Program-made: the position numbers and the translations under genes
Virus record (IMG/VR): IMGVR_UViG_3300031555_005516
DNA: 64,000 nt
Source: a virus
Strand: one strand, 5' to 3'
In this document: piece after piece, positions 20,662 through 53,585 of the stretch
Position numbering within the stretch: position 1 is the first letter of the stretch
Layout: the number at the start of each line of letters is the position of its first letter
The notes under the pieces: generated by a model
Databases searched by the model: none
Told to the model about the DNA's origin: nothing
What the model saw: only the letters and a program-made list of their open reading frames with translations

Positions 20662-20667
20662 ATATAT

Positions 20668-21401: not shown

Positions 21402-21451
21402 GAAACGCGGTCAGAGGTACAGCGCGTAATCGAAATTACTGTCCCTCATAT

Positions 21452-21940: not shown

Positions 21941-22017
21941 GTCCTCAGAGAACAAATGTCGAGGTTAAAATAGATGTGTGGTTGACTGACCTAAAGTTAT
22001 TTTATATGGGCGATTAA

Positions 22018-22106
22018 ACCGTTAAGATAGGCGGGTTAGACTGTAAATCTAGCGTCATTGTGACTCGAGTGGGTTTGATTCCCTCATCGCCCACCAATGA
22101 AATTTT
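22018..22106 (+). tRNA. tRNA-Tyr(GTA), type II
   Basis: acceptor gggcgat/atcgccc perfect, anticodon stem ttaga/tctag, loop ctgtaaa, long variable arm, CCA encoded. Confidence 0.6.
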
Positions 22107-22128
22107 AATCAATTACTATGAAACTTCT

Positions 22129-22157
22129 TTGATTTTTACAAAAATTTATGATATAAT
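22129..22157 (+). promoter_or_regulatory. Class II promoter
   Basis: TTGATT 22129-22134, TATAAT 22152-22157. Confidence 0.65.
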
Positions 22158-22192
22158 ATATATGTAAGATGAAAGAGAGGAAAAAAGAAAAA

Positions 22193-22537
22193 ATGAGTGT
22201 TGATTATGAGTCAGTTTTAATTTATGGATATAAAATATCTAAAAGTGAAATTAAGCGCCTTGAGGAAGAAACAGGTAAGTTCATAGAAGAGTTCTGCGAT
22301 AAGTACGATGGAACTGACAAGTACTCATTTATCACAGATAATGCCTATGGCAACTATGGTGATTACTATTTTGGAGTCACTCTTGGTCGAGAAATTGATC
22401 TTGACTCAATAGACGCTATCTGTTGGTTTGAATATGAAACAGATGCTATTGATAAAGAATTTGAAAATGCTTTTGGAGATATGTCTTTTGCAGATACTCA
22501 TCATCCAATGATGTATCATTTTGTTCGCGTCTGTTAA
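22193..22537 (+). CDS. hypothetical protein embedded in tRNA array
   Basis: 114 aa from ATG 22193 after RBS gagaggaaaaaag. Confidence 0.4.
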   Translation: MSVDYESVLIYGYKISKSEIKRLEEETGKFIEEFCDKYDGTDKYSFITDNAYGNYGDYYFGVTLGREIDLDSIDAICWFEYETDAIDKEFENAFGDMSFADTHHPMMYHFVRVC

Positions 22538-22556
22538 GGCGCAAAAGCCTCACTAT

Positions 22557-22644
22557 GAGGCGACACGGGGGAGTGGCGGAATTGGCGAGACGCCCGCGAC
22601 TTAAAATCGCGTACATTAGAAACGCTGTGAGTTCGAATCTCATC
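22557..22644 (+). tRNA. tRNA-Leu(TAA), type II
   Basis: acceptor gggggag/ctccccc perfect, anticodon stem cgcga/tcgcg, loop cttaaaa, A73, CCA encoded. Confidence 0.65.
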
Positions 22645-22973
22645 TCCCCCACCAGTCCCTTAAAGGGATCGATATCATACTCACCGATGAAAGCCAGATT
22701 CGGTATATAAATTAGTGGCGCTTCAAGTGGAAGGTTGTGTGTAAACCGATTAAGAAGAGAAAACGCAAGTGGAACACACAATACATAAGGTATGGGAATA
22801 AAGCGGCCCCACTAAGTAAGAGCAGCTTAGAGCGAATGCCTTAACAGGAGAAGGACAACTCCCCAAAAGCGCCCAACATTACGCAGAGGGAAAAACCCAA
22901 CAACTGGCTCACTGACGGGTTGTAAAACACAGTGACAAGATAAGGGCGTATGTTGGCGCAGCTTATCACTTAT

Positions 22974-23066
22974 AGTGGGGTAAGCCTAATTGGTAAGGCA
23001 GTAGGTTGCTAACCTACCAGTAATCGAGTAATCGGTGTGTGAGTTCAAGTCTCACCCTCGCTGCCA
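22974..23066 (+). tRNA. tRNA-Ser(GCT), type II
   Basis: acceptor agtgggg/cctcgct (2 G.U), anticodon stem gtagg/cctac, loop ttgctaa, long variable arm, G73. Confidence 0.6.
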
Positions 23067-23587
23067 GCTGTCGTTAATGCGGCGACATAAAAGGTGAAAC
23101 TCCCTAAGTTGGAAGCGTATTGGTGGACCATCCACAATCAGAAGTAGCGTTTGTCGATAGCGAATAGTCGAATCGTTGCAGTCTTTACAAGGCGCCATAT
23201 GGGACTGCGCAGAGTACGATAACCTCTGCTTTATATGGAGGGTTAATTGCGACGGCTCGCAACACCGTCTTGAAAACGGTTGGTACGGCTAGTACCCGTA
23301 TGGGGATCGACACCTCAGCTCTCCGCCAGAGGCTGGCACGCCGCCATAATTTGGATTGCCCAAAGATGCGTGCATCTATATAGAAACACCTGTAAGCAAT
23401 AAGCAGGTCTGGACGCAGATAAAAAGTAAAACGGTTAAGCGTAAGTCGACAACGCGGAAAAGTGGAATAGAGGCAACGCCGATCCACTTAAAGTTTCTAT
23501 TTTCGTTGGAGTAATCCAACTCTTGGTAGAGCAAATGGAACCATAAGGAAAAGCAATACGCGGCTGGCAACTTACTGCCACTTATAT

Positions 23588-23666
23588 AGGAGAGTAGCAC
23601 AGATGGTTAGCGCACAGTCCTGATAAGACTGAGGTCGGTTGAGTTCGAGTCTCCCCTCTCCTACCA
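23588..23666 (+). tRNA. tRNA-Ile(GAT)
   Basis: acceptor aggagag/ctctcct, anticodon stem cagtc/gactg, loop ctgataa, CCA encoded; T-stem partially mismatched. Confidence 0.5.
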
Positions 23667-23687
23667 AAATTTCAAAAGAAAAGAGAA

Positions 23688-23760
23688 ATAGTGGTTCGAA
23701 TCCATTCCTGTCTCCTAACCGGGGATGGGTAGTTTAAGTGGTTAAAACACTCATCGCGAG
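23688..23760 (+). ncRNA. orphan tRNA 3'-half-like (T-arm agtgg-ttcgaat-ccatt + acceptor) followed by tRNA 5'-half-like segment (ggggatgggtagtttaagtggttaaaac)
   Basis: 3' half has no upstream partner; ggggatg can pair with the upstream cattcct, suggesting a permuted, split or degenerate tRNA. Confidence 0.25.
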
Positions 23761-24030
23761 CTTTTGAAATTTGTTACAAGGAGTCATGACCTTGTCGTAA
23801 CATTGGTTAGCTATCCTAATGGTAAACCATGAGCGCGAAAATGCTCTAAAAACGATAGCAAGGGCAACCTATTGTCCGACCCCTGCCGATTATCAGCATA
23901 AGCGCAGTGCACGGCGCAAATAGGAGGATTGTCAGTTGTCTTATCTAACTATCTAAACTGAATAGTCAAGGGATACGAAGATCCCTCCCCGTAGCTGTTC
24001 GCGGGAGGTAACGAAGAGAGCAGCATCTAT

Positions 24031-24108
24031 GGGGGACTAGCTCCAATTGGCTAGAGCACGACACCTGCAATGTCGGGGTTATGAGTTCGAATCTCATGTC
24101 CTCCACCA
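24031..24108 (+). tRNA. tRNA-Ala(TGC)
   Basis: acceptor gggggac/gtcctcc with G3.U70 (Ala identity element), anticodon stem cgaca/tgtcg, loop cctgcaa, CCA encoded. Confidence 0.65.
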
Positions 24109-24112
24109 TTAT

Positions 24113-24188
24113 GCGTCTTTAACTCAGTTGGTAGAGTGCCATCCTTACAAGTTGGAAGTCGGCGGTTCGAGTCCGTCAAAACGCACCA
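24113..24188 (+). tRNA. tRNA-Val(TAC)
   Basis: D-arm actcagttggtagagt, loop cttacaa, T-arm ggcgg-ttcgagt-ccgtc, CCA encoded. Confidence 0.6.
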
Positions 24189-24363
24189 GTGCGTTGTCAC
24201 GCACGAGTATATTTTTACCTTTTTGCGAAAGCGGTCTTAGAAGGGCTCGTTTCACCCCATCGTTTTGGTTCAACTCCAAAATAAGCAAAAAGGGTTTGCG
24301 AATATGGTACATTGATAGTATGTGACCTTTCTTAGGTTGAGAGGTGGGTTCGATTTCCCACCT

Positions 24364-24392
24364 TTCTCCCATAATTGATTTTTAATAAAAAT
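24364..24392 (+). promoter_or_regulatory. Class II promoter inside tRNA array
   Basis: TTGATT 24364-24369, TATAAT 24387-24392. Confidence 0.6.
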
Positions 24393-24572
24393 TTTGTTAT
24401 AATATATATATACAAAATGAGAAAAGAAAAAACAAATACATATTGGTGACTGGATTTAGCGGTAAGACCTGTTCAGATAAACGCGTATCAACAGGCGCAA
24501 GTTAATCAGTCTTAAATCAGGAAACTTTCCTTTGGGCGTGCATTGCCCGCTCTGAGCCAGTCCTTTCTATAT

Positions 24573-24652
24573 AGTCTCGTAGCTCAGTCTTTGGCTAGAG
24601 CGCTAGTCTGTCACACTAGAGGTCGCGGGTTCGAGCCCCGTCGGGACTGCCA
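24573..24652 (+). tRNA. tRNA-Asp(GTC)
   Basis: acceptor agtctcg/cgggact, anticodon stem ctagt/actag, loop ctgtcac, T-arm gcggg-ttcgagc-cccgt, CCA encoded. Confidence 0.6.
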
Positions 24653-25342
24653 GAGGTGCCAATGCCTAATCATTGGTCAGGAGGCTAACCTGTGCGGTAA
24701 TACGCAGAGCGTCCGGGGTCCCGCATCCGTGAGCAACGGGGGAAAGATAATAGGTGCCACGATGCCGATAACAATTTGGGAGTGAATATTACTTGATGTA
24801 ATTAGCTCATTCTTAAAATCCTAGGTCTGAATGAGATACAGCTCTGTGAGGCAATAAAATGCAGTGGTAAATGGAGTTTGATGAACAGCCTATTCCACCC
24901 AGCTCTAAGGGTGAGTACTCGAGGTCTGGAGCAACGAGTAAATAAACAAAGTCTCCAGAGTCGTTTTGCGGTGTCGGAGAAAACCGCCATAGAGCGCAGG
25001 CTTTGAAGGTCATGAGGGATTAGAGCAATTGCCCCACTGGTAAGGAAGAGGAATGGAAATGCGCGGAAGTTCGAACACCTTCAAATCTACTAAGACCTCT
25101 GGAGGGGATGTTCCTCTCACATCAACAGAGCGAGTAGAGAGCGAAGTCGCAAACGCTATATAAGAAGACGAGTAATAGTGTTGAGTCTCAAGACACAGGC
25201 AGCGGTGGGCCAAATATCCGCTGGAGTTTCGCTTCCAAGATGAAATGCGAGATTTATGATGTGGCTTAGTAGTAGCGTAGGTTTATCCGACAAAGCTATG
25301 AAAGGCGCGGGCCCAGCTTCCCGTATCCAAGAGCTGGAATTT

Positions 25343-25418
25343 CGGGGTGTAGCCTAGTTGGTTAGGCGCTTGCTTTGGGAGCAAGATCACGCGGGTTCGA
25401 GTCCTGTCACTCCGTCCA
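25343..25418 (+). tRNA. tRNA-Pro(TGG)
   Basis: D-arm gcctagttggttaggc, anticodon stem cttgc/gcaag, loop tttggga, CCA encoded. Confidence 0.65.
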
Positions 25419-25737
25419 ATAACTGTGCCTAAAAGATTCTTAGGGCAACGATTGGCGCCAATCCTTCTCCCAGTAGTTGGATAATTAGCGCATTAGATAC
25501 CTCCTATATAGAGTTCGGAGAGTGTTTCTCTTGCTGGGTATAAAAACTCTCCTCCTCTCTTTCTACATATGATTCTTTAGCCAAGTTCAGTTAAGGCAGC
25601 AGGCTGCAACCCTGTGATCGTTGGAGCGAAGCCAACAAGAATCTCCATTGTTTTACCGTAGCAAAGAAAAACGGTATGCAGAGACTTTCATCTAACCACC
25701 ATTAGATGAAAGCAACCTCCAAGTTAAAGAAAAATCA

Positions 25738-25766
25738 TTGATTTTTTTAAAAAATTATGATATAAT
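25738..25766 (+). promoter_or_regulatory. Class II promoter
   Basis: TTGATT 25738-25743, TATAAT 25761-25766; followed by 37-codon ORF 25801..25914. Confidence 0.55.
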
Positions 25767-25940
25767 ATATTTGTTAAGATAAAGAAAGGAAATAAAAGAA
25801 ATGAGAACAATTGAAAGCCTTCAGGCAAGAATAGAATTGCTTAAAAGCCGCAAACGCGAAAATGGTAGAATTATCCGTAAGTTAGAGCGGCAGATTAGAT
25901 CACTTCAAAAGTAATAATCGTGCTGCTACCACTTCGACAT

Positions 25941-26027
25941 GAGCGTGTAGTACAGCGGCGAGTACAAGGGACTTTTAATCCCTCGACATTATGTCCATCG
26001 CGGGTTCGATTCCCGCCACGCTCACCA
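25941..26027 (+). tRNA. type II (long-variable-arm) tRNA with anticodon TTT (Lys codon AAA) - unusual combination
   Basis: acceptor gagcgtg/cacgctc perfect, anticodon stem aggga/tccct perfect, loop cttttaa, variable arm cgacattatgtccatc, T-arm gcggg-ttcgatt-cccgc, A73, CCA. Confidence 0.5.
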
Positions 26028-26056
26028 AAAATAAAAAGGTAGCGTAAGGATAATTT

Positions 26057-26085
26057 GTTGAAAAAATAAAAAATTTATGATATAA
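26057..26085 (+). promoter_or_regulatory. Class II-like promoter (TTGAAA -35)
   Basis: TTGAAA 26057-26062, TATAAT 26080-26085. Confidence 0.5.
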
Positions 26086-26274
26086 TAAATATGTAAAATA
26101 AAGGCGATGCAATATAAACTCCTGACCCGAGTTTCCATCAACAAATTCTCGATCCAAAATTGCTCGAAAGAGGTCGCTAATCGTGGTTGAAATAGAGGAT
26201 TGGTGGACAAGTGGACACATGCGGCTTTGACCCGCACGAAGAAGGGGCGGTACCTTCATCCTCTGCCAAGATAT

Positions 26275-26351
26275 TCTCGGTTAGCTCAGTTGGTAGTAGC
26301 ACAAAGCTGTTAACTTTGGGGTCTGAGGTTCAAGCCCTCAACCGAGAGCCA
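26275..26351 (+). tRNA. tRNA-Asn(GTT)
   Basis: acceptor tctcggt/accgaga perfect, anticodon stem caaag/ctttg, loop ctgttaa, T-arm tgagg-ttcaagc-cctca, CCA encoded. Confidence 0.7.
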
Positions 26352-26567
26352 ACAGTCAGTTTAATCTGGCAACCGCGAAGACATGGATTAGCACTAAACT
26401 ACCACCGACTCAGACCAAGGTGCGGCTTACCGCGATATGGTAACGAGGTATGTGGCTTGTGGCAAAGCGGGATAAAAATTGGCAAAGTAAGTGCTTATGA
26501 GACTTTCTCATAGTTTTCCTCCCTTTCATAACAGCTTGGGTTGTGCTGCAAACAACCTTCTAAAAAT

Positions 26568-26645
26568 GTCAGTCTAGCCCAATTGGTAGAGGCACTAGTC
26601 TTAGGAACTAGCAAGTGATGGGTCCGAATCCCTCGATTGACACCA
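26568..26645 (+). tRNA. type I tRNA with anticodon TAG (reads CUA; Leu-like anticodon on a short-variable-arm body)
   Basis: acceptor gtcagtc/gattgac, anticodon stem ctagt/actag perfect, loop cttagga; T-stem imperfect, T-loop tccgaat. Confidence 0.4.
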
Positions 26646-26649
26646 TGGA

Positions 26650-27280
26650 GCTACTTCCAAGCCGTAAGGTGAATGTAGATGACTTCTGGAGTATTCAGGA
26701 TCATAAGAGTACTAACCACGAGCCAACCTCGCAGCACGAGCACGAAAGCGTTGGTGACTATACGGTATCAATAGGCGAATCCGTACGCGCGACGAGGCAT
26801 GATGCGAAAAATCAAAAAGGTGGCAGCTTGCTCGAAACGATTATTGGAACTTGGACATAAATTAATTCGATATTGATGTGGAACGGTACTGCCAAAAACC
26901 AATCTGATCCAAGCGGAAACCGAAAGGTTGAAACATTAATATTCGATATAAGTAAATAACCTTGATTTCATTGAGTATTTTGAGGTGATTACTACTGAGA
27001 AAATCAGAGTAGGCTTGAGAGAGCGCTCACGAAAATGTAATTGAAATCAAATGTCGAGAAAATCGTGGATTTCGTCCACTCGAAAAGTAGTTTAGCGACG
27101 AAAAGTAGAGTGCGATTGGCGCCTAGGATGTGGTGTGGTTCTGGTAGACCTCTTAACGAATGTCTAAGCCAGATGTAGATTGAAAGATGAAACGGTTATC
27201 TACTCGAATTGTGGAAGGTAGCAAATACCCGATGCCCAAAAGAAGAAGATATGCGGTTGGCTGACCTAAGGCTTCACCTC
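26650..27280 (+). ncRNA. ~630 nt GC-rich non-coding region within tRNA array (candidate large structured RNA)
   Basis: no convincing ORF (track ORF 26615..26860 overlaps the tRNA and looks spurious); GC content much higher than the genome. Confidence 0.25.
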
Positions 27281-27282
27281 CC

Positions 27283-27367
27283 TATTTAATATGCACCTGT
27301 CGCATAGTGGCCGATTGCACTCGCCTTGTAAGCGAGAGACCATGTCCGCGTTGGTTCGAATCCAACC
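27283..27367 (+). tRNA. type II tRNA with anticodon TGT (Thr codon ACA) - unusual combination
   Basis: acceptor gcacctg/caggtgc perfect, anticodon stem ctcgc/gcgag perfect, loop cttgtaa, variable arm agaccatgtccgc, T-arm gttgg-ttcgaat-ccaac, CCA encoded. Confidence 0.5.
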
Positions 27368-27384
27368 AGGTGCTCCATGGCGTC

Positions 27385-36232: not shown

Positions 36233-37638
36233 ATGTATAAGGCTTATATAACTACACTTAAAAATGTGCGCCCTCATCCCAATGCAGATAGACTGCTTCT
36301 TGCAGACTGTTTTGGAAATACTATATGCGTCTCTCTTGATTATAAAGAGGGACAGCTTGGTATCTATCTACCTACCGATGGTCAGGTATCAGTAGAATTT
36401 GCTAAACATAATAATCTACTTCGTAAGAAAGACGAAAATGGAGTGAATATAGGTGGCTACATGGATCCTGACAAACGCAATATAACCGCTATTCGTTTGC
36501 GCGGAGAGAAATCAGATGGTATTTTCCTTCCTTTATCTGCGCTCGACTATTGCTTCGAAGATGAGGCAGCCGCCGCGCATCTTAAAGAGGGAGATATAAT
36601 CGAAGGTCTTGTTAATGGACACGAGATTTGTTGCAAGTATATTCCTCGTTCTAATACTCGTCGCGGTTATGTATCAGATGGAAACAGAACTCGTAAGAAG
36701 AAGGTCTCTACCGCGCCTTTGTTCAAGGAGCATGCTGACACTGAGCAGTTAGCTTATAACCTTGGCGCTTTTAAGCCTGGTGACGAGATTGAGATCACGC
36801 TTAAGCTACATGGCACTAGTCAGAGAACTGGTTATCTGCCTACTCTAAAAGGATACAAGCGTAGCCTTTGGGATAAGATCACTCGAAAAGAAGGTACTCC
36901 TATATATGACTGGGGCGGTGTTTCTGGCACCCGCCGCGTAGTTCTTGAAGATTATGAAGGTGGGTTTTATGGCTCTAATGAGTTTAGAGAAAAACATTCA
37001 AAGACTTTTGAAGGAAAACTTTGGAAGGGCGAGACTATTTACTACGAGGTAGTTGGTTTTACAACCGATGGAAAGCCTATTATGGGAGATGCAAATAATA
37101 AAAAGCTAAATGATAAAGATTTTATTAAACAGTATGGTGAAACTACTCGTTTTTCTTATGGATGCGCTCCTGATGGTTTAAAGACAATGTATGGCAATGA
37201 TGATAATGGAGTTTTTTCTATTTCTGTGGAAGTCCCTCAGTCAGATATCTATATCTACCGTATGACTATGACTAACGAGGATGGTGATGTAGTTGAGTAT
37301 ACTCCTGACTTCATGCGTTATCGCTGTGAACAGATGGGAGTAAAAACCGTTCCTGTAATGTGGAAAGGTATTATTCCTGACCACTGCGCGTCAGCAGACG
37401 ATCCTACTATTTCTGCGGGTGAATGGGTTTTAAGGCAGAGCAGTTTTATGATGGTCCCGATCCGATAGGCAAGACCCATGTGCGCGAAGGCGTAGTGGTT
37501 CGTATTGTTAATAGGCCTAAGTTCGCCGCATTTAAACATAAAAATTTTAGTTTCAAATGCTTAGAGGGGCTGGTTAAAGCTGAAGCAACTGCTCCCGATG
37601 TAGAAGAAGCACAAGAAGTTGAAGTAACAGAAGAATAA
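36233..37638 (+). CDS. RNA ligase (Rnl2-like nucleotidyltransferase) with N-terminal tRNA-binding (Myf/EMAP-like) domain; interrupted by a -1 frameshift near 37423-37468
   Basis: N-terminus HPNADRLLLADC like the tRNA-binding domain HPNADKL; motif I LKLHGTSQ (KxHGxN); motif IV EGVVVRIV and motif V KFAAFKHKN lie in the second frame (ORF 37423..37638), which overlaps ORF1 by 45 nt. Confidence 0.5.
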
Positions 37639-37646
37639 AAATAAAA

Positions 37647-37671
37647 AAGCCACGACTATGTGGCTTTTTTG
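37647..37671 (+). terminator. rho-independent terminator
   Basis: aagccacgactatgtggctt + ttttt. Confidence 0.75.
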
Positions 37672-37697
37672 ATTTTTTATAAAAATTATGTTATAAT
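37669..37697 (+). promoter_or_regulatory. Class II promoter
   Basis: TTGATT 37669-37674, TATAAT 37692-37697. Confidence 0.65.
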
Positions 37698-38051
37698 AAA
37701 TTATAAAAGAAATGAAAGAGAGAAAATAAGATGTTTACAGATGCAAAAACGGTAAGAGAAATAGCAAACAAAATAAATACAAATAAAAGACAAAGAGCAA
37801 GAGAAGTTGTCTAAGCTGAATGGGAAGAATTTATTGCTCCGAGAATTATTGCAGCCGCAGAGGTTGGCACTTATACCTGTAGTTATTTTTGGGCTGCTAA
37901 TACACTGATGGAACAGGGTGTTGATATGCATCTTTTTCAAGATGAGTTAAAAAAGTTTTTAGTTTTACTCGGATATAATGCAGAAATAGGAACCGATGAA
38001 CTTATGGGAGCAATAGTAAAAATAACGGTATATATAAATTGGAGGAACTAA

Positions 38052-38513
38052 ATGAGTAAATTGATTATGATGGTAGGTATTCCAGGATCGGGTAAGTCGA
38101 CCTATATTAAAAATAATTTTCCAGATATAACACCTGTATCAAGAGATGCAATCCGTTTTGAATCACTTGATGAAAGAGGCGGCGAATACTTTGACTACGA
38201 AGATGAAGTTTTTGATAAGTTTATTCGTCAAATTATCGGTAGCCTTGTAGCAGATGAAGTAACAATAGCAGATGCTACTCATCTTAATAAAAAATCACGC
38301 GCAAGAGTGCTTGATAAAGTGCGTAAGTTTGCAGATGAAATTGAGGCAGTGGTACTCGATACAAGTGTAGAAACTGCATTTAAAAGAAATGACCAACGCG
38401 AAGGGCGCGCTTGGGTTAAGCATGGTATTATCCGCCGTATGTTTTTCACAATGGAGATGCCTGAAGAGGCAGAGGGGTTTAATAAAATAACTGTTATAAA
38501 GGAGGAAGAGTAA
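38052..38513 (+). CDS. pnk: polynucleotide 5'-kinase (P-loop kinase domain, T4 Pnk-like)
   Basis: 153 aa; Walker A GIPGSGKST, SRD motif, lid R residues; operon with phosphoesterase and RNA ligase. Confidence 0.65.
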   Translation: MSKLIMMVGIPGSGKSTYIKNNFPDITPVSRDAIRFESLDERGGEYFDYEDEVFDKFIRQIIGSLVADEVTIADATHLNKKSRARVLDKVRKFADEIEAVVLDTSVETAFKRNDQREGRAWVKHGIIRRMFFTMEMPEEAEGFNKITVIKEEE

Positions 38514-39076
38514 TGAGTAAGATTTGGATCACGTCGGATCTGCATCTGGGGCATGACCGCGAATTTATTTGGGGCGCCCGAGGCTATGCAGATGTAAATG
38601 AAATGAATATTAAGCAGATTGAGAAATTCAATTCTGTGGTATCTGACGAAGACGAAGTATGGATTCTTGGAGATCTCGTTCTTGGCGACATTGAAGGCGG
38701 CCTAGCGCTTCTTAAGCAGCTTAAAGGTAAAATTCATGTTTGTCTCGGAAATCACGATACTTCAAGGAGAGAGCAGGCTTATCGCGATATGGGCTGGGAT
38801 GTGCAGCTTTGCGCGCGCCTAAAATATAAGAAAATCAACTTTTATCTTTCACATTATCCTACTATTACTCACAACCTTAAGGAGAAAGAACTCTGGCAGG
38901 TTGTAGTGAACTTATATGGTCACCTTCATCAGACATCTAACTTTTATAAAGGAGATCCTTGGATGTATCACGTAGGAGTGGATAGTCATGACGGATACCC
39001 TGTTTCTCTTGATCAAGTTCTCGAAGATATCAGAGCAGAAATGAATAAATGTGAGGAGATGCTTGATAATGACTAA
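38513..39076 (+). CDS. calcineurin-like metallophosphoesterase (candidate 2',3'-cyclic phosphate / 3'-phosphate end-healing phosphatase)
   Basis: motifs DLHLGHD, GDLVLGD, GNHD, H...H typical of lambda-phosphatase-like binuclear metallophosphoesterases. Confidence 0.65.
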   Translation: MSKIWITSDLHLGHDREFIWGARGYADVNEMNIKQIEKFNSVVSDEDEVWILGDLVLGDIEGGLALLKQLKGKIHVCLGNHDTSRREQAYRDMGWDVQLCARLKYKKINFYLSHYPTITHNLKEKELWQVVVNLYGHLHQTSNFYKGDPWMYHVGVDSHDGYPVSLDQVLEDIRAEMNKCEEMLDND

Positions 39077-39909: not shown

Positions 39910-40501
39910 AAATACTTTTCGACATTTTGGAAAAATATGTAAGCATAAATATTGGGTATTTTATTATTGTTGTAAAGCAGGTATCCCTTGGCGCGGAATT
40001 AAACACGATATGTCCAAGTTCTCACCGACTGAATTCTGGGAGTCGGTGAGATATTATCAAGGTAATCGCTCTCCTATTGATGCCTGTAAGGAAGATAAAG
40101 GCGTCTCTAAAGCATGGCTACATCATAAAGGGCGTAATTCTCATCACTACGAATATCACCAAGACAACTTTGATAACGGTGGACAGCCGCTTCAAATGCC
40201 TTATAAAGATGCTGTTGAAATGCTTTGTGATTATCTCGGCGCCGGGCGCGCTTATATGGGGAAGGATTTCACTTACCAAAAGGAATATGAATGGTGGTGT
40301 AAAAAATGTGAAAAGCCTTTAGCAATGCATCAAAATACCAAAGATTTTATTACCCACGCATTAAAACAGTTAACTCATGGGTTAAAATTACAAGATATTG
40401 ATTTAGCATGGATTTATGAATGGTATGAATCTCGTGAATTAACAGAAGAGTTTTATAAGGGTGTAAAAGAGTCTTTAGAAAAGGAGAAATCTAATGGCTA
40501 A
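39887..40501 (+). CDS. hypothetical protein
   Basis: 204 aa ORF. Confidence 0.45.
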   Translation: MKTRITIKNTFRHFGKICKHKYWVFYYCCKAGIPWRGIKHDMSKFSPTEFWESVRYYQGNRSPIDACKEDKGVSKAWLHHKGRNSHHYEYHQDNFDNGGQPLQMPYKDAVEMLCDYLGAGRAYMGKDFTYQKEYEWWCKKCEKPLAMHQNTKDFITHALKQLTHGLKLQDIDLAWIYEWYESRELTEEFYKGVKESLEKEKSNG

Positions 40502-40991
40502 ATACTATGCATATACAGATGGTTCTAGTCGCGGAAACCCTGGTCCAGGTGGTTGGGGAATGATCGTGATGAGCGGAGACGATTCTGAAATTCTTTTCTT
40601 AGAACACGATTCTGAAGATAATGTAACCAATAACCGTATGGAACTTAAAGCAATGATTTGCGCCCTCAATTATGCAGAGTCTAATCCACAACATCAATTC
40701 GTTATTTACTCTGATAGCGCCTATGTTGTTAATAGCATTACTCAATGGGCCGATACCTGGGCTAAGAATAATTGGACAAAAAAAGATAAAAAACCTATTC
40801 AAAATTTAATATATATACAAGAAGCTTATAAATTATATCAACAACTTAGTTTTGCCACGCAAATTCTGCAAGTACCAGGACATGCAAATATATTAGGTAA
40901 TGAATTAGCAGATTGCTTAGCTACAGGTAATATAAAACAATTTAACAAGCTTTGTGAAGAGTATAATATTAAATACAAAGGAGAAACCTAA
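40494..40991 (+). CDS. rnhA: ribonuclease H (RNase HI)
   Basis: YTDGSSRGNPGPGGWGMI...NNRMELKAMICAL...VIYSDSAYVV...NWTKK; catalytic DEDD arrangement. Confidence 0.75.
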   Translation: MAKYYAYTDGSSRGNPGPGGWGMIVMSGDDSEILFLEHDSEDNVTNNRMELKAMICALNYAESNPQHQFVIYSDSAYVVNSITQWADTWAKNNWTKKDKKPIQNLIYIQEAYKLYQQLSFATQILQVPGHANILGNELADCLATGNIKQFNKLCEEYNIKYKGET

Positions 40992-40992
40992 T

Positions 40993-41850
40993 ATGGATCA
41001 AAAAAAATATCTTGTTTATATGCACGAAAGAAAAAAGACTGGTTAGAAATACTTTGGTATCACTTCTGCTTCTGCCACGGCTAGATGGCGTAATGGTAAC
41101 GGGTATAACAAAAATTAGCGTTTTTGGCGAGATATACAAGAAGACGGATGGCAAGAAGGATTTATCCATTCTATTTTACATGAAAATCTGTCTGAAAAAG
41201 AAGCTTTAGAACTAGAAACAAAATATATTTTACAATACGAAACTTATCTTCCAGAAAAGGGCTATAATAAAAGAATTAAAGATGGATGTAGAGATGCTTT
41301 ATCAAATGAAGCTCGTCAAAATATGTCACAAGGACAAATAATAAGATATTAGCGAGAAGAAGAACATATTAAACAATCTATAAAAACAAAAGAAAGGTTG
41401 CAATAGTATCCTGAGCTTAAAGAATAGTGCGTACAAGCATTATAGAATTGGCGAAAAAATTTATCGCCTGAAGAAAAGCAAAAACATGATAATGCATACG
41501 GCTATGCTGTTAAGTGTTTAGAGACAGGTCAAATTTATCCTACTATTAGTGAAGCTGCACGAAAAACACATTGCGATAGAAAAGGTATCAATCGTTGTGT
41601 TTTAGGTCAAGCGCTATCCATTAATGGTAAACATTGGGTGAAAGCAGATGATAATATAACTACAATCGAAATAATTGAGAGTCGTCGTAAAAAAACAGGC
41701 CGAGCTCGATCTATAATTTGTTTAGAAACGGGTGAAATATTTTTAAGCATTGGAGATGCGGAACGAAAATATGGAGGAGACATTTAGCATTGCGTTATGG
41801 GTTTGCAGCAAACAGCTGCGGGATATCATTGGGAATATTATAATTCATAA
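40993..41850 (+). CDS. GIY-YIG homing endonuclease with NUMOD3 repeats; 7 in-frame TAG codons
   Basis: 285 codons with 7 TAG and no TAA/TGA; YLVYMHERKKTG-TAG-KYFGITSA (GIY-YIG), two TG(Q/E)IY(P/L)(T/S)I(S/G)(E/D)A(A/E)RK NUMOD3-like repeats. Confidence 0.65.
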
Positions 41851-41874
41851 CCAGTTCCCTATTGATTAATTTAA

Positions 41875-41902
41875 TTGATTTCTTAAAAAAATTTAATTAT
41901 AA
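41875..41902 (+). promoter_or_regulatory. Class II promoter driving the suppressor tRNA
   Basis: TTGATT 41875-41880, TATAAT 41897-41902. Confidence 0.6.
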
Positions 41903-41933
41903 TATATATGTAATAAGTTAAGAAATCAATATT

Positions 41934-42009
41934 GCGGAGTAGCCAAGCGGGAAGGCGGCACTCTCTAAAAGTGCATATGCGTGAGTTCGAATCTCACCTC
42001 CGCCGCCAT
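41934..42009 (+). tRNA. amber suppressor tRNA, anticodon CTA, tRNA-Gln-like body (tRNA-Sup(CTA) / Gln)
   Basis: acceptor tgcggag/ctccgcc (U1, G73 as in tRNA-Gln), D-arm gccaagcgggaaggc = tRNA-Gln D-arm, anticodon stem gcact/agtgc perfect with loop ctCTAaa, T-arm gtgag-ttcgaat-ctcac, CCA encoded. Confidence 0.7.
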
Positions 42010-42072
42010 TATTTAAACTCCTTTGAATTTTCAAAGGAGTTTTTATTTTATTTATTAATAAGGAGTTTCAAT

Positions 42073-42546
42073 ATGAATAAACAAAAATTTGATGCTTATC
42101 TGCAAAAGCTATATGAAGAATTAAACAAAGACTATAGATATGAAAAAGAAAGATGTTCGCGCCTTTATCCTGATTGGAAAGATGACGAATTCAATATGCT
42201 TGACAATCTTTTTATTTGGGGATACAATATAGATAAAAATATAACTCCTTCTTTCTACTCATGGGATGACGCTTATATCTATTATAACAGAGTTTCTAAA
42301 AAATACTTTATGACAATAGATACAGGATTTTATAATTTAAAGTATAATGCTGAGTTGGCTCGGACAGAAATCCAGCGTCTTCGTGAAATTGATTTGGCTT
42401 TTAGAAATTTTTTAGCCGAAAATGATCTTCCAATGATTGAACCTGTTTTTCCCTATAATGATCCGGCGCTCGAAGCTGATACTCTTCCTCAATTATATTT
42501 TAAATTTAGAGTAATGTTAGAAGGATATAAACAATATCTTCATTAA
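42073..42546 (+). CDS. hypothetical protein
   Basis: 157 aa from ATG 42073 after RBS aggag (track ORF 41932 start overlaps the tRNA). Confidence 0.45.
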   Translation: MNKQKFDAYLQKLYEELNKDYRYEKERCSRLYPDWKDDEFNMLDNLFIWGYNIDKNITPSFYSWDDAYIYYNRVSKKYFMTIDTGFYNLKYNAELARTEIQRLREIDLAFRNFLAENDLPMIEPVFPYNDPALEADTLPQLYFKFRVMLEGYKQYLH

Positions 42547-42619
42547 GGTCAATATTATTTAATTTTATTGATTTTCTTTTAATATATTATTAGAAAATAT
42601 ATTAAAGGAGGAAAAACCT

Positions 42620-43242
42620 ATGAAATTAAACACCGCGCGCTTGCGCATTTTAATTGGTATATTAAGTATGGCACTTCCTTGGATTGTTGCTTTACTCTTC
42701 GGCGGCATACCCTCATCTATTTCCGCCACTTATTATATCGCTCAATGTATAACCCCTTTTATGGGAATCTTATGCTCAGCATCTTTTCTTTTGATTTCCT
42801 ACCGAGGATATACTAAATTGGATGATATTATTCTGACACTTGCAGGAATATGTGGCTTGCTTATCTGTTTCTGTCCCTGTTGGGATGCATTAGCGCCGGC
42901 GCTAGTAGGAACCTTTTAGATTCCTGTAAACATTAGTGCAACCATTCATAATGTATCAGCTATTGTATTCTTCGGTCTTCTTTCTTACAACTCTTTATTT
43001 TTGTTTACAAAATCAAGCGGAGAAATGACTAAAAAGAAAAAGGCGCGTAATATTATCTATAGAATTTGCGGAATTGGAATGATTGCTTCATTTGGCATTT
43101 TGTTATTACCTTATTTCCGTATTTAGATTTGGTTAATAGAAACCATTGCGCTTTCTTTCTTTGGCATTAGCTTTTTAACTAAAGCAGATGTATTCCCATT
43201 CTTATTCTGTGATACAAGTTATAAACAAGGCGATGATTAATA
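42620..43242 (+). CDS. polytopic membrane protein with two in-frame TAG codons
   Basis: track ORF 42620..42919 continues in frame through TAG at 42917 and a second TAG to TAA at 43240; hydrophobic throughout. Confidence 0.45.
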
Positions 43243-43249
43243 ATTAAAT

Positions 43250-43284
43250 AATAAGCCTCAGATTTAATCTGAGGCTTATTTTGT
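43250..43284 (+). terminator. rho-independent terminator
   Basis: aataagcctcagatttaatctgaggcttattttg. Confidence 0.7.
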
Positions 43285-43368: not shown

Positions 43369-46300
43369 ATGACACAAAATTATCAAGCAGATAATATTAA
43401 ATCTCTTGATTACTTTGAGCATATCCGAAAGTATCCCGGTATGTATATAGGAAGTAAGGATGCAAAAGGATTACTTCATTGTGTAAAAGAGATAATTTCT
43501 AATAGTATTGATGAATATTTAAATGGAGCTGGTAATCAAATAAAAGTAACTATTTTACCAAACAATGGTATTCGCATAGAAGATAATGGGCGCGGCATTC
43601 CGCATGGTAAACATCCAAGTGGTTGTAGTGTGCTTCAAGCTTGTTTTGGTATTGCAAATACTGGCGGTAAATTTGATAATGCTACTGGAGAATCTGGATA
43701 TAATACTTCTGGCGGAGAACACGGAACTGGAGGTAAGGCTGTAAATGCTTTATCTAAATCTATGATTGTAAAAACCCGCCGCGAAGGCATTGAAGAAATC
43801 GTAGAATTTTCAAGAGGTCAATTTATTTCTCATAAAGAGAATAAAATTGACAAATCGATCACTGGAACTTCTGTTGAATTCTATCCTGACCCAGAAGTCC
43901 TTGAAACAGTAGAGTTTGATATTAAAGGTATTCGAGATATGATTCGAGAATTTAGCTTTTTATGCAAAGGGCTACATTTTATTTATACCGTTTTAGATAC
44001 AAAAGAAGATTTCTATTCTGAGCGCGGACTTGCAGATTATATGGATTATTTAAATCCAAAAGGAGAGTTTATAGCTGATCCTTTCTACTTCAATAGCGAA
44101 GAAGGTAAGTTTCAACTCGAGGTTGCTATTGGATATAGTAAATCTTATTCTTCTGTTATTAAACTATATACAAACAATATTCCCCAAGAAAAAGGAACTC
44201 ATTTGACAGGTTTTAAAACAGCTTGGACAATGGGATTAAATAATTTTGCAAGAGAAAATAAGTTAATTAAAGAAAAAGAAGAAAATCTTACTGGTTCAGA
44301 CTATGAAGAAGGTATGATTTTAATTCTAAACTTTAAGATGATTGATCCTGTTTTTAAAGGACAAAATAAAGAGGAGCTTAGTTCTTCTGAAGGTAGAACT
44401 TATGCGCAGAAGCTAACAACTCAAGCTCTTGGAGATTTAACATCTTCTTATAAAAATGCCTTTAAAACAATTATTGAAAAAGCCTTATCTGCAAGGAAAG
44501 CAAGAGAAGCTGCTAAAAAGGCGCGCGACGCGGCTCGAGGCGATAAAAAGAAAAAGGAAAAGGCGCTTAAGTTTGATTCAAAATTAGCAGACTGTTATTC
44601 AAAGGTTCGCGCTAACTGTGAAATTTACGTGACGGAAGGCGATAGCGCCTCCGGCAATATGAAAGCTGCCCGCGATAATGAGTTTCAAGCAGTGCTGCCC
44701 GTGCGCGGAAAGATATTAAATACGCAAAAAGCAGCCTTAGATAAAATTCAAAAGAATGCAGAAATTATGACTATGATTGAAGCCTTTGGTCTTAAAACCG
44801 ATCCGAAAACAATGAAGCTAACGTATGATAAAGACTCACTGCGCTATGGGAAGATTATTATAGCTGCCGATGCGGATGCAGACGGTGAACGAGTTTAAGT
44901 TGCGCCGATGAAAAACTTTACTGCTAACCAGCAGGGTATTGAAAAATTTAAAATTTTTGGTTAAAATTAGAATATGTGATTAGTACGATTTTCATATAAT
45001 AATAGAACAGAGATAAGAATTTTTCAATGCTAACGGGGAAGCCTGAGTATTGGTAATCCCGTGGGAACATTTATTAACTCTTATCTCCAAATACAAAAAG
45101 GAGATATATTATGATAGGAATTTATAAAATTACTAAAAAATCTAATGGAAAGTGTTATATTGGACAAACTAATGATATAAAAAGGCGCTTCTCTGAGCAT
45201 AAAAGAGGAGATAGAACCGATATCCCAGTAGACGTAGCTATTGGTTTATATGGAACTGAAGCTTTTGATTTTGAGATATTAGAAGAATGTTCATTAGAGC
45301 AATTAAATGAAAGAGAACAGTATTGGATTGCTTATTATAAAAGTTATCCAAATGGATACAATTGTAATCCCGGAGGAGAACAAGCATCTGTTGGTTCTTT
45401 AAATGGTAATGCAAAATTAAACGAAGAAGATGTTATGATAATTCGTAAAGCATACGCTAAGCATCTTCGCCAAAAAGATGTATATGAATTATTTAAAGAT
45501 AAAACTACTTTTAGTAACTTTCAATCTGTTTGGCAGGGTAGAACTTGGGCACACATTATGCCCGAGGTTTTTACCAAAGAGAATAAAGATTATTACATCT
45601 ATGAAAATAGCCGTGGCTCAAAAGGTAAAGATGCTCATTTTACAGATGAAGAAATTATTGCTATTCGCACTCGTTATATTAATGAAACTGCGAAGCAAAT
45701 TTATGAAGATTATAAAAACAGAGTCGCTTATCAAACTTTCCAAATGATTTTATGGGGTCGTTATTATGATAACCTTCCTATTTACAAGAAAAAAGAAAAA
45801 AAATGGGTTAATATTTGACCTGTATCGACTATTCCTTAAGCCTTCTGGGCAAGGAAGTAAGGCTGCTATTGGTACGCAGTTGGATTTTAGGAAACGAAGT
45901 CCATTAAATGCTGAAATGGTTTCCTCTCAAACAGAGAGTAAAAGATAGTCAGGAGAAATACTCAATTCTAATGTTTAATGGCACACATTAGAAACTTGTT
46001 TTACACATTTATATGGAATTTTTGCCCCGCTTTAATTGAAAATGGATATGTATATGCACTTGTGGCGCCGCTCTATAAGATTACGATGGGTAAAGATACT
46101 TATCTGTATTTAAGAGACGATAAAGAGTTGGCTGAGTTTCAAGAGAAAAATAGAGGAAAAAAGTATCAGGTCAATAGATTCAAAGGATTAGGCGAGATGT
46201 CAGAGGACGAGACTGAAATTCTTGTAGACCCAGGCTTAAGAGTGTTGAATCAGGTTACGGTTGAAGAAGCAAAGAAAGCAGATGTTTTGTTTGATCAGCT

Positions 46301-51584: not shown

Positions 51585-51857
51585 ATGACTATGAATAGAG
51601 AAGAGCGCAGAGCGCTCAAAAAGAAAATCGCACCTAAGGCTAAAGAGGTTGCCGCACTTGAAATCATGGCTCGAGATCCAGAAAAAAAAGATGAGTGCGA
51701 AGAAAAAATAAGCGCCATCATAGAATCTATGACCTTAATGGAGATGATGGCATTGGAAGATTATATTATGTCAAAGGGACTCTTAGAAGATAACTTTGTC
51801 AGAAATAAAAATAAAAATTCAACAGAGAAAAAAGGAGAACAAAATTATGGCACTTAA
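51585..51857 (+). CDS. hypothetical protein
   Basis: 90 aa. Confidence 0.35.
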   Translation: MTMNREERRALKKKIAPKAKEVAALEIMARDPEKKDECEEKISAIIESMTLMEMMALEDYIMSKGLLEDNFVRNKNKNSTEKKGEQNYGT

Positions 51858-52116
51858 GCCCAACTCAATTGCAGTATTTAACTATGTAAAAGAAAATGAT
51901 GGAGCAGATTTTACTGCCTAGGATATCGCAGAAGCTCTTAATCTTGAAGTAAAGAGTGTTAACGGTATTGTAACAAGTGCATTTCAAAAGAAAGGTCTTA
52001 TGGTTCGTGAAGAGGCCGAGGTCGAACTTGCAGATAACACACATAAGAAGGTAAAATTTATTCGTCTTACCGATGCAGGTCGTGACTTTGATCCAGAGGC
52101 ACCTGAGAGCAAGTAA
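51847..52116 (+). CDS. small protein with one in-frame TAG; fourth member of the MA(x)KK...KKVxFxRL paralogous family
   Basis: MALKPNSIAVFNYVKENDGADFTA-TAG-DIAEALNLE...HKKVKFIRLTDAG; absent from ORF track. Confidence 0.45.
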
Positions 52117-52167: not shown

Positions 52168-52392
52168 ATGGAATACGAATTACATTTATATATAAGTTTA
52201 CAGCCTTCTGATAAAGCAGAGTTCATTACTGATTTACCAAAAATGCCTCCAGAAACTCCTTGGTGGGGACAAGGAGCGGTATTAACAGAAGAGGAATATA
52301 CAAAATACTTTCCAGATGGATATCAAACCGGAGAAGGAATATTTAATCTTTTAAAAGATTTATATAATACAAAGGAGTCTACTTTTGTATGA
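52168..52392 (+). CDS. hypothetical protein
   Basis: 74 aa. Confidence 0.4.
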   Translation: MEYELHLYISLQPSDKAEFITDLPKMPPETPWWGQGAVLTEEEYTKYFPDGYQTGEGIFNLLKDLYNTKESTFV

Positions 52393-53585
52393 TAATAATA
52401 TGCGTAATATCAATTCTTCTTGGAGCGGGAGGTCTTGCTTATGGTATATGGACTAAAACCACGTCCGTAAAAGCTAATCACTATACGGCAGAGGAGAATT
52501 AGAAGCTGGAAGAACTTAATTAGTCATTACATGCAACTCGCAAAAGTTTAGAAGCTCAAAATGACTTATTGATAAAATCTAACAATGAAATTTCTCAAAA
52601 GTATGAAGAGAACTGCAAAAAAACAAAAAACTCTTACGACAAATTAAATCAACTAACTCAATAGAAGTTATTATTAATAGATGAAATTCAAAGTAAACAA
52701 ATTGAAAAAGCAGGAGTTGAGGCGCAAATCACCGCTTTAAGCAGCTCTGTAGAGACAATGTTAGGCGACCTAAAAGCTGCAGCCCGCGCATCGTTTGAGC
52801 AATACTGTGATACTCTTGATTATGAATACAAATAGAAAGAACAAGAGTTTGATATGGAGATAGATACTCTTGATCAATTATACTTTGATAGACTCCAAGA
52901 ACTTGATGCAAGAGAAAAAGGATTAATTGAAGAGCGCAGACAAGATATTGATGCTCTTGTATAGTTATTTTATGATAAGCAACAGTCAATGTCTAAAGAA
53001 TTGCAAGAAGAAGAGGCGGCAATGCGCGCCGATCTAGACTCAATCCGTAAAGAACTAGAAAAAATTCGTGCAACTAGGGCCGCCGCAATGGAAGCTCAAC
53101 TGCGCGAAGAAGAGATTAAAAACCAAGCAACATTCTATACTCTTCAACTTAATGAAGCAGATAAGCGTGACGTGGCATATCTTCAAAGTATCGAATATAA
53201 CTTGCGCGAACCAAGACCTCTACGCATGCTTATATGGTCTACGTTCTATAGAGATAAAGTCAATGACCTTGCGGCGCGCGTAGGTGCGGTGGGCGCAAGT
53301 GGAATATATAAAATAACTCACATTGACTCTGGTATATCCTATATCGGTCAGGCTAAAGATATTAAAGAGCGTTGGGTAACGCATGTTAAATGTAGTTTGG
53401 GTATCGATACCCCTGTAACAAGTCAACTCTATGCTTTTACAAGAGAAAAGGGTATTGACAACTTCACTTTTGAGATATTAGAGAAATGTAGTATTAATGA
53501 ATTAAATGAAAAGGAGAAGTTTTATATTGACCTATATCAAACATATGATTTTGGACTGAATAAAACTCGTGGGAATAACTAAATG
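52389..53585 (+). CDS. membrane-anchored coiled-coil protein with C-terminal GIY-YIG nuclease domain; 5 in-frame TAG codons
   Basis: ATG 52389 (ATGA overlap), N-terminal TM IIICVISILLGAGGLAYGIW, coiled coil with 5 TAG at Gln-compatible heptad positions, runs in frame into ORF 52989..53582 whose C-terminus GIYKITHIDSGISYIGQAKDIKERWVTHVK is a GIY-YIG motif. Confidence 0.5.

Follow-up and report, generated by a model that had tools for sequence, protein, structure and literature searches.

Suppressor tRNAs with the anticodon CUA (Sup-tRNA(CUA)) are known from TAG-recoded gut phages (genetic code 15), among them crAss-like, Lak, and Garnet/Amethyst/Topaz phages (Borges et al., 10.1101/2021.08.26.457843). 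In that study, suppressor tRNAs were found in 40% of the TAG-recoded genomes, TAG to Gln and TGA to Trp were the only reassignments, and charging by host synthetases was presumed; a recoded intron endonuclease, the product of which was expected only late, and the TGA-recoded Agate phage were also described. Three CTA suppressors typed as Gln by tRNAscan-SE, together with the lack of a phage synthetase, were reported for phAss-1/Phassvirus (PMC10607447), and code 15 was validated by proteomics in Peters et al. (PMC9523058). Recoding of TAG to Gln with a Sup-tRNA(CUA), even with preferential recoding of endonuclease genes, is already published for phages. Here, we analyzed a stretch of 64,000 nucleotides of viral DNA (IMG/VR record IMGVR_UViG_3300031555_005516), referred to as the window, which harbors a stand-alone gene for a tRNA(CUA) at 41933–42008 on the plus strand. 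A large gut or rumen-type phage here carries its own TAG-reading tRNA, with glutamine as the most likely residue inserted. We consider it likely that this tRNA is a functional phage-encoded amber suppressor that converts the TAG stop into a glutamine codon during infection (code 15).

The locus resembles those of the code 15 gut phages in that a CUA tRNA is encoded by a large, AT-rich phage (G + C content of the window 37.7%) with a tRNA array, in that the TAG codons are best read as Gln, and in that the replication genes are free of TAG. A search for a glutaminyl-tRNA synthetase (GlnRS) or release-factor-related gene, as proposed in the initial annotation, revealed none in the 64-kb window, where the open reading frames (ORFs) of adequate size belonged to other families or gave no match; as in the gut phages, a host enzyme is therefore presumed to charge the tRNA. 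The preferential recoding of a homing endonuclease is shared with the Agate phage. In contrast to the code 15 gut phages, the window belongs to a different lineage: megablast with 8 kb around the tRNA matched nothing in the phage collection at the nucleotide level, and all tblastn matches of the topoisomerase in this collection were below 40% identity. More than 200 relatives were present in IMG/VR (contigs mostly of 100–175 kb, topoisomerase identities of 43–72%), many of which look TAG- or TGA-recoded in a comparison of ORF coverage. Also unlike the gut phages, the window contains the suppressor as a single stand-alone cassette between the RNase H and topoisomerase II genes, outside the array, with a consistently open or weak 1:72 end and a strictly linked gene for a 157-aa protein. 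The window has no release-factor gene, and a theta or HDV-like ribozyme beside the tRNA was considered and rejected, as Rfam gave no hit.

In Escherichia coli, supE (glnV/glnX) inserts Gln at UAG in competition with release factor 1 (RF1); this suppressor, a cellular tRNA with a point mutation, keeps U1-A72, G3-C70, and U38. The phage tRNA has in common with supE the tRNA-Gln body, the CUA anticodon, U1, G73, G2-C71, G10, U35, and A37. It differs by a U.C combination at 1:72, C3-G70, A38, and a 6-nt variable region, and by having a dedicated gene, in a genome in which TAG has ceased to serve as stop.

The tRNA(CUA) gene and its transcription unit

ARAGORN identified a 76-nt tRNA with the anticodon cta at 41933–42008 (+). 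The Rfam tRNA model RF00005 matched 41933–42005 over the full model (positions 1–71) with a score of 53.2 bits (E = 2e-10; gathering score, 29), which is in the middle of the range obtained for the 20 Rfam-confirmed tRNAs of the window (38–69 bits) in a whole-window scan. The Infernal-type check with a general tRNA model that the initial annotation had proposed thus had a positive outcome, and the anticodon CUA was assigned by two programs. The cloverleaf was the minimum-free-energy fold, with 1:72 unpaired; the fold-energy z-score of −0.7 was alone not significant, as is usual for tRNAs. Parsed by hand, the sequence reads UGCGGAG-UA-GCC-AAGCGGGAA-GGC-G-GCACU-CUCUAAA-AGUGC-AUAUGC-GUGAG-UUCGAAU-CUCAC-CUCCGCC-G-CCA. 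The anticodon loop C32 U33 C34 U35 A36 A37 A38 comprises 7 nt on a perfect 5-bp stem, with CUA at 34–36; the D-loop has 9 nt with G18-G19, and the variable region has 6 nt. G73 is located at 42005 and is followed by an encoded CCA.

Both programs and direct reading bear out the 76-nt tRNA with the stem gcact/agtgc and the loop CTCTAAA (CTA at 34–36) that had been noticed initially, and direct reading equally confirmed U1, the D-arm GCCAAGCGGGAAGGC, G73, and the CCA end. The U1-A72 pair claimed at the same time is not there: position 72 is C, resulting in a U1.C72 mismatch that Rfam flagged as noncanonical. A Watson–Crick 1:72 pair closing a 7-bp acceptor stem is thus missing, which makes the tRNA atypical and leaves its membership in the tRNA family unaffected. 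Covariation was analyzed in an alignment of 12 sequences, in which the window tRNA was joined by seven further CUA suppressors and four genes for tRNA-Gln(UUG). Double compensatory changes were found in 15 of the 18 consensus pairs, and the consensus was a cloverleaf in which no 1:72 pair was predicted.

A sigma-70-like site at 41875–41903 (TTGATT, 17-nt spacer, TATAAT; 10 of 12 positions in the consensus scan; −10 element at 41898–41903) precedes the gene and is followed by a conserved ATATATGTAAT, so that the putative tRNA promoter spans 41875–41914 (+). The −35 and −10 elements and the downstream TATATGTAAT were kept in the syntenic relatives L027, L091, L092/93, L098, L099, and L101, while the flanking sequence diverged. 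The 17-mer extended −10 motif TATAATATATATGTAAT was found in 23 copies in the window (≤3 mismatches) versus 1.1 expected from shuffles; almost all copies are on the plus strand, before clusters of small genes and inside the tRNA array. As the copy at the tRNA is perfect, the gene appears to use the recurrent strong promoter class of the phage. Sites of the type TATAAT-ATATATGTAAT, ranging from 89 to 58360 (for example at 6887, 13751, 22152, 30722, and 41898), probably constitute a phage-specific promoter class, and the "class II" promoter of the initial annotation presumably refers to the TATAATATATATGTAAT motif. At the other end, a terminator scan identified a 12-bp hairpin with a 4-nt loop and a T-run at 42015–42042 (+), starting 6 nt past the CCA; this intrinsic-terminator-like element, annotated up to 42052, is present in the same place in L027, L091, L098, L099, L101, and L102. 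With promoter and terminator both present and conserved in syntenic relatives, the view of a stand-alone gene with its own promoter is supported. The gene lies, as had been stated, outside the main tRNA array, which comprises 21 tRNAs at 19179–27377, about 14.5 kb away, and contains no tRNA-Gln (ARAGORN).

TAG as a sense codon and the residue inserted

Genes with in-frame TAG codons were found by reading only TAA and TGA as stops. In total, 18 in-frame TAGs were present in seven curated plus-strand genes, with additional ones in minus-strand genes; most of these genes code for homing endonucleases or are inserted genes. The 62 curated plus-strand genes were terminated by TAA (48) or TGA (14), and none by TAG, and Pfam domain matches run through in-frame TAGs. 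TAG is a sense codon in the window, which is in line with the proposed role of the tRNA as its decoding agent.

The gene with most TAG codons codes for a GIY-YIG + NUMOD1 homing endonuclease with seven TAGs (40993–41850, +), two of which are spanned by the Pfam GIY-YIG match (residues 5–89); the tRNA gene does follow directly after a heavily recoded homing endonuclease gene, as initially described. Copies in two ENA contigs (L092/L093; ENA samples ERZ28594710 and ERZ27316513) showed 97% nucleotide identity and retained all seven TAGs, and 14 of 21 codon differences were synonymous, which argues for purifying selection on the read-through frame. Five TAGs each are found in a gene for a coiled-coil protein with a C-terminal GIY-YIG domain (52389–53582, +; Pfam E = 4e-8), the L027 orthologue of which is 89% identical with TAG positions in common, and in a GIY-YIG endonuclease gene identified by Pfam (E = 1e-6) and translation (10789–11298, −). 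A membrane-protein gene without family match (42620–43240, +; translation and comparison with L027) contains two TAGs, and a LAGLIDADG homing endonuclease gene (56378–57193, +; LAGLIDADG_3, E = 2.5e-19) contains one. Single TAGs also occur in genes that are not mobile or are conserved: a tail-fiber-like gene (28528–29184, +; weak Pfam Mtd_N match spanning the TAG), a vertically inherited, family-conserved gene with orthologues in more than 40 relatives (51847–52116, +), in which the TAG is aligned with A, Q, K, E, N, S, P, or I, and a conserved 100-aa gene with a TAG near the N terminus and an orthologue in L027 (39607–39909, +; translation). The replication genes of the window contain no TAG. 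Two homing endonuclease genes have no in-frame TAG either, a GIY-YIG gene between the topoisomerase subunit genes (45111–45818) and an HNH_3/NUMOD4 gene (33297–34070); the association of recoding with selfish genes is therefore not absolute.

To assign the residue at TAG, a family-wide tally was compiled from nonoverlapping ORF sets of about 90 loci, with substitution spectra taken from the same alignments. It replaced a first tally over all ORFs, which was polluted by wrong-frame shadow ORFs, by curated genes and greedy nonoverlapping ORF sets. TAG was aligned with Q in 22%, 28%, and 53% of the informative sites in the identity classes 40–60, 60–80, and 80–99.5%, respectively. Q was the maximum-likelihood residue for TAG, with an advantage of >170 log units over E and K family-wide. 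It was also best, by about 15 log-likelihood units, for the window's own TAGs, and by 49 units for the TAGs of relatives compared with the residues of the window (Q 28, K 18, E 9). The Q residues at TAG positions in the database homologues P0001 and P0002 were discarded as evidence, because the underlying DNA has TAG and the gene caller had used a table in which TAG is Gln.

Codon usage provided a second line of evidence. The ratio CAG/(CAG + CAA) was 0.07 in the seven TAG-containing genes versus 0.43 elsewhere (odds ratio 0.10, p = 1e-10), with odds ratios of 0.56 for GAG/GAA and 0.40 for AAG/AAA as control pairs in the TAG-containing genes. When TAG was counted together with CAG, the odds ratio was 0.44 and thus inside the control range; the loss of CAG is offset by the TAG count, so TAG behaves as a CAG replacement. 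From these alignments and codon ratios, Gln is the best-supported residue at TAG. The initial assignment of Gln as the inserted residue accordingly agrees with the family-wide and window alignments, the loss of CAG, and the Gln-like tRNA body.

tRNA-Gln body, open acceptor end, and alternative explanations

When about 90 distinct tRNAs were compared, other CUA suppressors ranked closest to the window tRNA. The non-suppressor neighbors that ranked above the first other isotype (Leu, 0.66) were all tRNA-Gln(UUG), with identities of 0.67–0.71, which is in accordance with the tRNA-Gln body, including the D-arm, that had been predicted. The suppressor and the tRNA-Gln(UUG) of the phage family (L069, L071, L072, L074, L082; 67–71% identity) have in common U1, the sequence xxGGAG-UA-GCCAAGCGGNAAGGC, a CAUGC-like variable region, and the UUCGAAU T-loop; G73 is shared with some of these tRNA-Gln, and the D-arm differs by one base. 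Unlike the suppressor, the family tRNA-Gln(UUG) have the anticodon UUG, a Watson–Crick U1-A72 pair, and a 5-nt variable region, and are located inside arrays. In bacterial genomes the D-arm/T-loop pattern matched a single locus, a tRNA-Gln(UUG), in what is a weak test as the pattern fixed the 6-nt spacing of the variable region. The body of the suppressor thus appears to be derived from the tRNA-Gln type, with the family tRNA-Gln(UUG) genes as a plausible evolutionary source.

The bacterial Gln identity set comprises G73, U1-A72, G2-C71, G3-C70, G10, U34/U35/G36, A37, and U38 (PMC9976931). GlnRS glutaminylates amber tRNA-Trp, an amber tRNA-Ser acquires Gln identity when 1-72 and 3-70 are changed, and bacterial GatCAB and GluRS2 discriminate at 1:72, accepting U-A and rejecting G-C (PMC9976931). 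The window tRNA contains G73, U1, G2-C71, C34, U35, and A37, as well as G10, which opens a 3-bp D-stem (GCC/GGC) as in tRNA-Gln. Of the GlnRS identity elements to be inspected according to the initial annotation, U1, G73, and G10 were therefore found, while U1-A72 is replaced by U.C and G3-C70, G36, and U38 are missing. The U.C end is open from the outset and may serve GlnRS as well as, or better than, the weak U1-A72 pair. The determinant set of the anticodon loop is incomplete, since a CUA anticodon imposes A36 in place of G36, and A also occupies position 38; for the tolerance of CUA by GlnRS, supE and amber tRNA-Trp are precedents. The 3:70 pair is C-G, and thus compensated, in the window and L098, and G-C in L091, L092, L097, L099, and L101.

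The 1:72 end was open or weak throughout the syntenic suppressors. It is U.C in the window, L091, L092, and L098, U.U in L097, A.A in L027, A.C in L039, and U-A in L099/100/102 and L101; across ten lineages it was never G-C, and G73 and the encoded CCA were present in all. CUA tRNAs with a Gln-type D-arm on two unrelated viral contigs (L001, 255 kb, 3294–3368; L002, 1107–1182, −) have a Watson–Crick G1-C72, so the open end is specific to the lineage of the RNase H/topoisomerase cassette rather than universal. We infer that selection may maintain a weak or open terminal pair because this favors the Gln pathway and makes up for the lost G36. A limited literature search did not retrieve a description of a consistently open 1:72 end, which is no proof of novelty.

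In 94–99-nt suppressor tRNAs of relatives, two tandem anticodon-arm-like hairpins were observed. They are located in L039 (8371–8467; identical in L037, L038, and L114), L101 (2346–2444), L056 (481–576, −), L069/L070 (158–253, −), and L103–L113, L118, and L119. In the amber type, loop 1 is CUCUAAA (CUA) and loop 2 is CUCUGAA, CUCUGAC, or GUCUGCU, all with the Gln anticodon CUG; as the amber search pattern required TCTG in loop 2, only L039 and L101 are unbiased examples. In the opal type, loop 1 is CUUCAAA (UCA) and loop 2 is CUCCAAA with the Trp anticodon CCA, and the body resembles tRNA-Trp and has G73; in this set the second stem covaries and the loop is constant. The two-hairpin tRNAs of L039, L101, and L069 passed the Rfam tRNA model at 55–60 bits, in contrast to the sequence from L092, and the second hairpin was in the variable-arm position in three of four folds. 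A plausible, though speculative, reading is that the extra arm leaves the cognate anticodon accessible to the synthetase. In the literature searched, which was limited and gives no proof of novelty, natural tRNAs with two anticodon-like arms were not found.

Several points weigh against a functional, Gln-inserting suppressor. The support for read-through of UAG is indirect, consisting of in-frame TAGs in genes under purifying selection and the lack of TAG terminators. The promoter was called by its match to a consensus, in AT-rich DNA, and the window as a whole has 23 such matches versus 15 expected; since they are common in DNA of this composition, conservation and motif recurrence weigh more. 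The residues aligned with the window's own TAGs are mostly K, E, A, and Q, with K, E, and A about as frequent as Q, which makes the window-level alignment signal for Gln modest, and part of this signal comes from redundant orthologues. Of the E. coli GlnRS determinants, three (G3-C70, G36, U38) are absent. An unpaired 1:72 end reportedly weakens the use of E. coli initiator-derived suppressors by EF-Tu (attributed to Seong and RajBhandary, 1987), so the mismatch could carry a cost. The host may lack GlnRS and would then have to use a nondiscriminating glutamyl-tRNA synthetase (ND-GluRS) and GatCAB on a tRNA with CUA and a U.C end. Finally, in L092/93, the closest relative with 97% identity in the endonuclease gene, the tRNA-like sequence (L092 ∼2928–3003 and its L093 equivalent) failed both ARAGORN and Rfam; the CUA loop, U1.C72, G73, and CCA are kept and the T-arm is aberrant. 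This sequence may be a decaying suppressor, and its failure indicates that the locus can decay.

The frequency of K, E, and A at the window's own TAGs, at least equal to that of Q, also raises the question whether a functional suppressor inserts another residue, in the first place Glu via an indirect pathway in which GatCAB does not amidate, and in the second place Lys. E and K came next after Q in every likelihood test, the GatCAB determinant U1-A72 is U.C here, and amber suppressors are prone to mis-lysylation (PMC1483225). We regard this as unlikely, given that Q is ahead of E and K by >170 log units family-wide and by 15–49 at the window-linked sites, and that the specific depletion of CAG is offset by the TAG count, which suggests TAG as a synonym of CAG and not of GAG or AAG. 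The body, G73, and G10 are moreover of the Gln type, the D-loop has the length of tRNA-Gln without the extra base of tRNA-Glu, and all published TAG reassignments in phages are to Gln. Decay of the gene is the other concern: the tRNA could be nonfunctional or nondecoding, and the TAG genes pseudogenes or cargo from other recoded phages. Homing endonucleases and inserted genes indeed account for most TAGs of the window. At the syntenic site, the L092/93 sequence can no longer be recognized as a tRNA, and the IMG/VR relatives ranked closest by topoisomerase identity lack a tRNA there. The window copy, in contrast, is canonical with 53 bits and shows compensatory changes versus relatives (3:70 C-G versus G-C), its promoter and terminator are intact and conserved, and TAGs also occur in the vertically inherited genes at 28528, 39607, and 51847. 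With the frame of the seven-TAG endonuclease under purifying selection and TAG never used as terminator, a relic is distinctly unlikely.

Two further identities were considered for the tRNA itself. ARAGORN labeled it "tRNA-Pyl" on account of the CUA anticodon, a label that the program gives to any cta anticodon. In tRNA-Pyl the D-loop is small and lacks GG, the variable loop has 3 nt, the anticodon stem has 6 bp, and T-psi-C is missing; the D-loop of the window tRNA, in contrast, comprises 9 nt with G18-G19, its T-loop is TTCGAAT, and its anticodon stem and variable region measure 5 bp and 6 nt, respectively. TAG aligns with Gln, and no PylRS- or pylBCD-like ORF was found among the window ORFs scanned; a pyrrolysine tRNA is refuted for practical purposes. 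The acceptor stem U1xC72/G2-C71/C3-G70/G4-C69 resembles that of E. coli tRNA-fMet (C1xA72/G2-C71/C3-G70/G4-C69), as would be expected of an initiator-like tRNA starting translation at UAG. This function is highly improbable for a tRNA that lacks the three consecutive G-C pairs in the anticodon stem, has the discriminator G73 rather than A73, and has G3-C70 in relatives; the TAGs are internal to frames, so an elongator is needed.

For the preferred assignment as a Gln-inserting amber suppressor, the following course of events would apply. Host RNA polymerase would transcribe the tRNA from the strong sigma-70-type promoter, of a class shared with the small-gene clusters and the tRNA array; judged by this class, expression may be early or constitutive. 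RNase P would remove a leader of about 23 nt, and the 3' end would be trimmed back to the encoded CCA. A host enzyme would then charge the tRNA with Gln, the likeliest one being GlnRS via U35, G73, G2-C71, and G10; GlnRS must open 1:72, and as the U.C mismatch is already open, it may make up for the missing G36. At UAG, the charged tRNA would compete with host RF1. Genes containing TAG would be fully translated only after accumulation of the tRNA, namely the homing endonucleases, inserted accessory genes, the tail-fiber-like gene, and probably late genes beyond the window, and the TAG-free replication genes would be readable from the start of infection.

History of the locus and the linked 157-aa gene

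The window codes for topoisomerase II subunits, an NAD-dependent DNA ligase, a DnaB-type helicase, and a primase, and further for a sigma factor and a Sak4-like protein. An RNase H gene, a gene pair for a kinase and a phosphoesterase, and an RNA-ligase-like gene are also present, together with the several homing endonuclease genes. The order RNase H followed by topoisomerase II is kept throughout the phage family. The tRNA(CUA) and the 157-aa gene are located between them in a subset only, consisting of the window, L027, L037–39, L091, L092/93, L095–97, L098, L099/100, L101, and L102.

Two insertions can be traced in this region, with affected spans of 40985–41869 and 42540–43267. The RNase H gene (40494–40991, +) ends prematurely with ...KGET*, compared with ...ENWFPID* in L027, and the endonuclease gene is inserted in its last codons. 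A relic of the RNase H 3' end (AAC CAG TTC CCT ATT GAT TAA, NQFPID*; 41849–41869, +), matching the NWFPID* end in L027, is retained between the endonuclease gene and the tRNA promoter. Similarly, the membrane-protein gene is inserted in the 3' end of the 157-aa gene, with the relic NNKPQI* at ∼43244–43267; in L027, the homologue of the 157-aa gene ends with ...ENNKPQS* and is immediately followed by the topoisomerase promoter. The possibility that the endonuclease lies within a group I intron was rejected, as the insert is almost wholly ORF and Rfam found no intron. Nucleotide identities between the window and L092 were 73% for the DUF5662 gene upstream of RNase H, 88% for RNase H, 97% for the endonuclease, 76% for the promoter region, 62% for the tRNA, and 55% for the 157-aa gene. 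Such a profile would be the pattern expected of recent homing with co-conversion of one flank; in that case the TAGs here are concentrated in recent, selfish genes circulating among phages with the same altered code.

The conserved 157-aa gene (42073–42546, +) contains no TAG and is located directly downstream of the tRNA(CUA) in all ten lineages examined. Its product gave no family match, and a confident AlphaFold model retrieved no structural relatives. The adjacency may reflect function or the shared descent of the block within one clade. TAG-recoded relatives without the tRNA(CUA)/157-aa pair near the topoisomerase gene exist, so the 157-aa gene is not universally required at this locus. 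It is a rather unlikely extension of the suppressor assignment that the two genes form a mobile "code-switch" cassette, with the protein as a new factor on which efficient UAG decoding depends. The protein might antagonize RF1 or might help to charge or deliver a tRNA with an open 1:72 end; the open acceptor end would be an adaptation restoring the GlnRS activity lost by the change of G36 to A36, and the two-hairpin tRNAs of relatives could be an alternative solution to the same problem of synthetase recognition. A cassette of tRNA and protein was not found described in the literature, in a limited search that is no proof of novelty.

Upstream of the suppressor locus, a possible RNA-repair set is located at 36233–39076, comprising the RNA-ligase-like gene, an AAA_33/KTI12-type kinase (38052–38513), and a metallophosphoesterase (38513–39076); a weak HAD_PNKP-like ORF was found at 4615–5058. 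An apparent TAG terminator of the RNA-ligase-like gene (36233–) was dismissed as an artifact of a frameshift near 37,440: at 37380–37650, the C terminus of the orthologues (EQFYDGPDPIGKTH...) continues in another frame. This frameshift could result from an error of assembly, mark a pseudogene, or be programmed. An 830-aa ORF (30771–33263) clearly matched PF11978, the shoulder domain of the major vault protein (E = 3.5e-25), and weakly a Vault_3 repeat, and had no PHROG match; it is unusual in a phage. Some array tRNAs of isotypes that normally belong to class I have long variable regions, namely Ile-UAU (90 nt), Lys-UUU (87 nt), and Thr-UGU (85 nt). These odd array tRNAs were located at 21851–21940, 25941–26027, 27293–27377, and 21038–21112, one of them with a 4-base anticodon call (ggat). 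In L069, a 120-kb phage contig, an OLE RNA (RF01071; 3379–3650, −; 100 bits, E = 4e-25, partial model 281–595) sits inside the tRNA array. To our knowledge, OLE RNAs are otherwise known from Bacillota, and this finding may hint at the host range.

The window adds one more well-supported switch of TAG from stop to glutamine by a phage's own tRNA, in a lineage without a cultured or annotated relative. Annotation requires translation table 15, as at least nine genes of the window come out truncated without it. The finding that 1:72 is never G-C and that G73 is always present in ten lineages leads to a clear hypothesis on how GlnRS charging may be retained after the loss of an anticodon determinant, and the strictly linked 157-aa gene is a candidate for how recoding phages cope with RF1. 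With 97% identity of the endonuclease genes versus 55–88% for their flanks, the endonuclease genes appear to move among phages with the same altered code, and they would be silent wherever the suppressor is absent.

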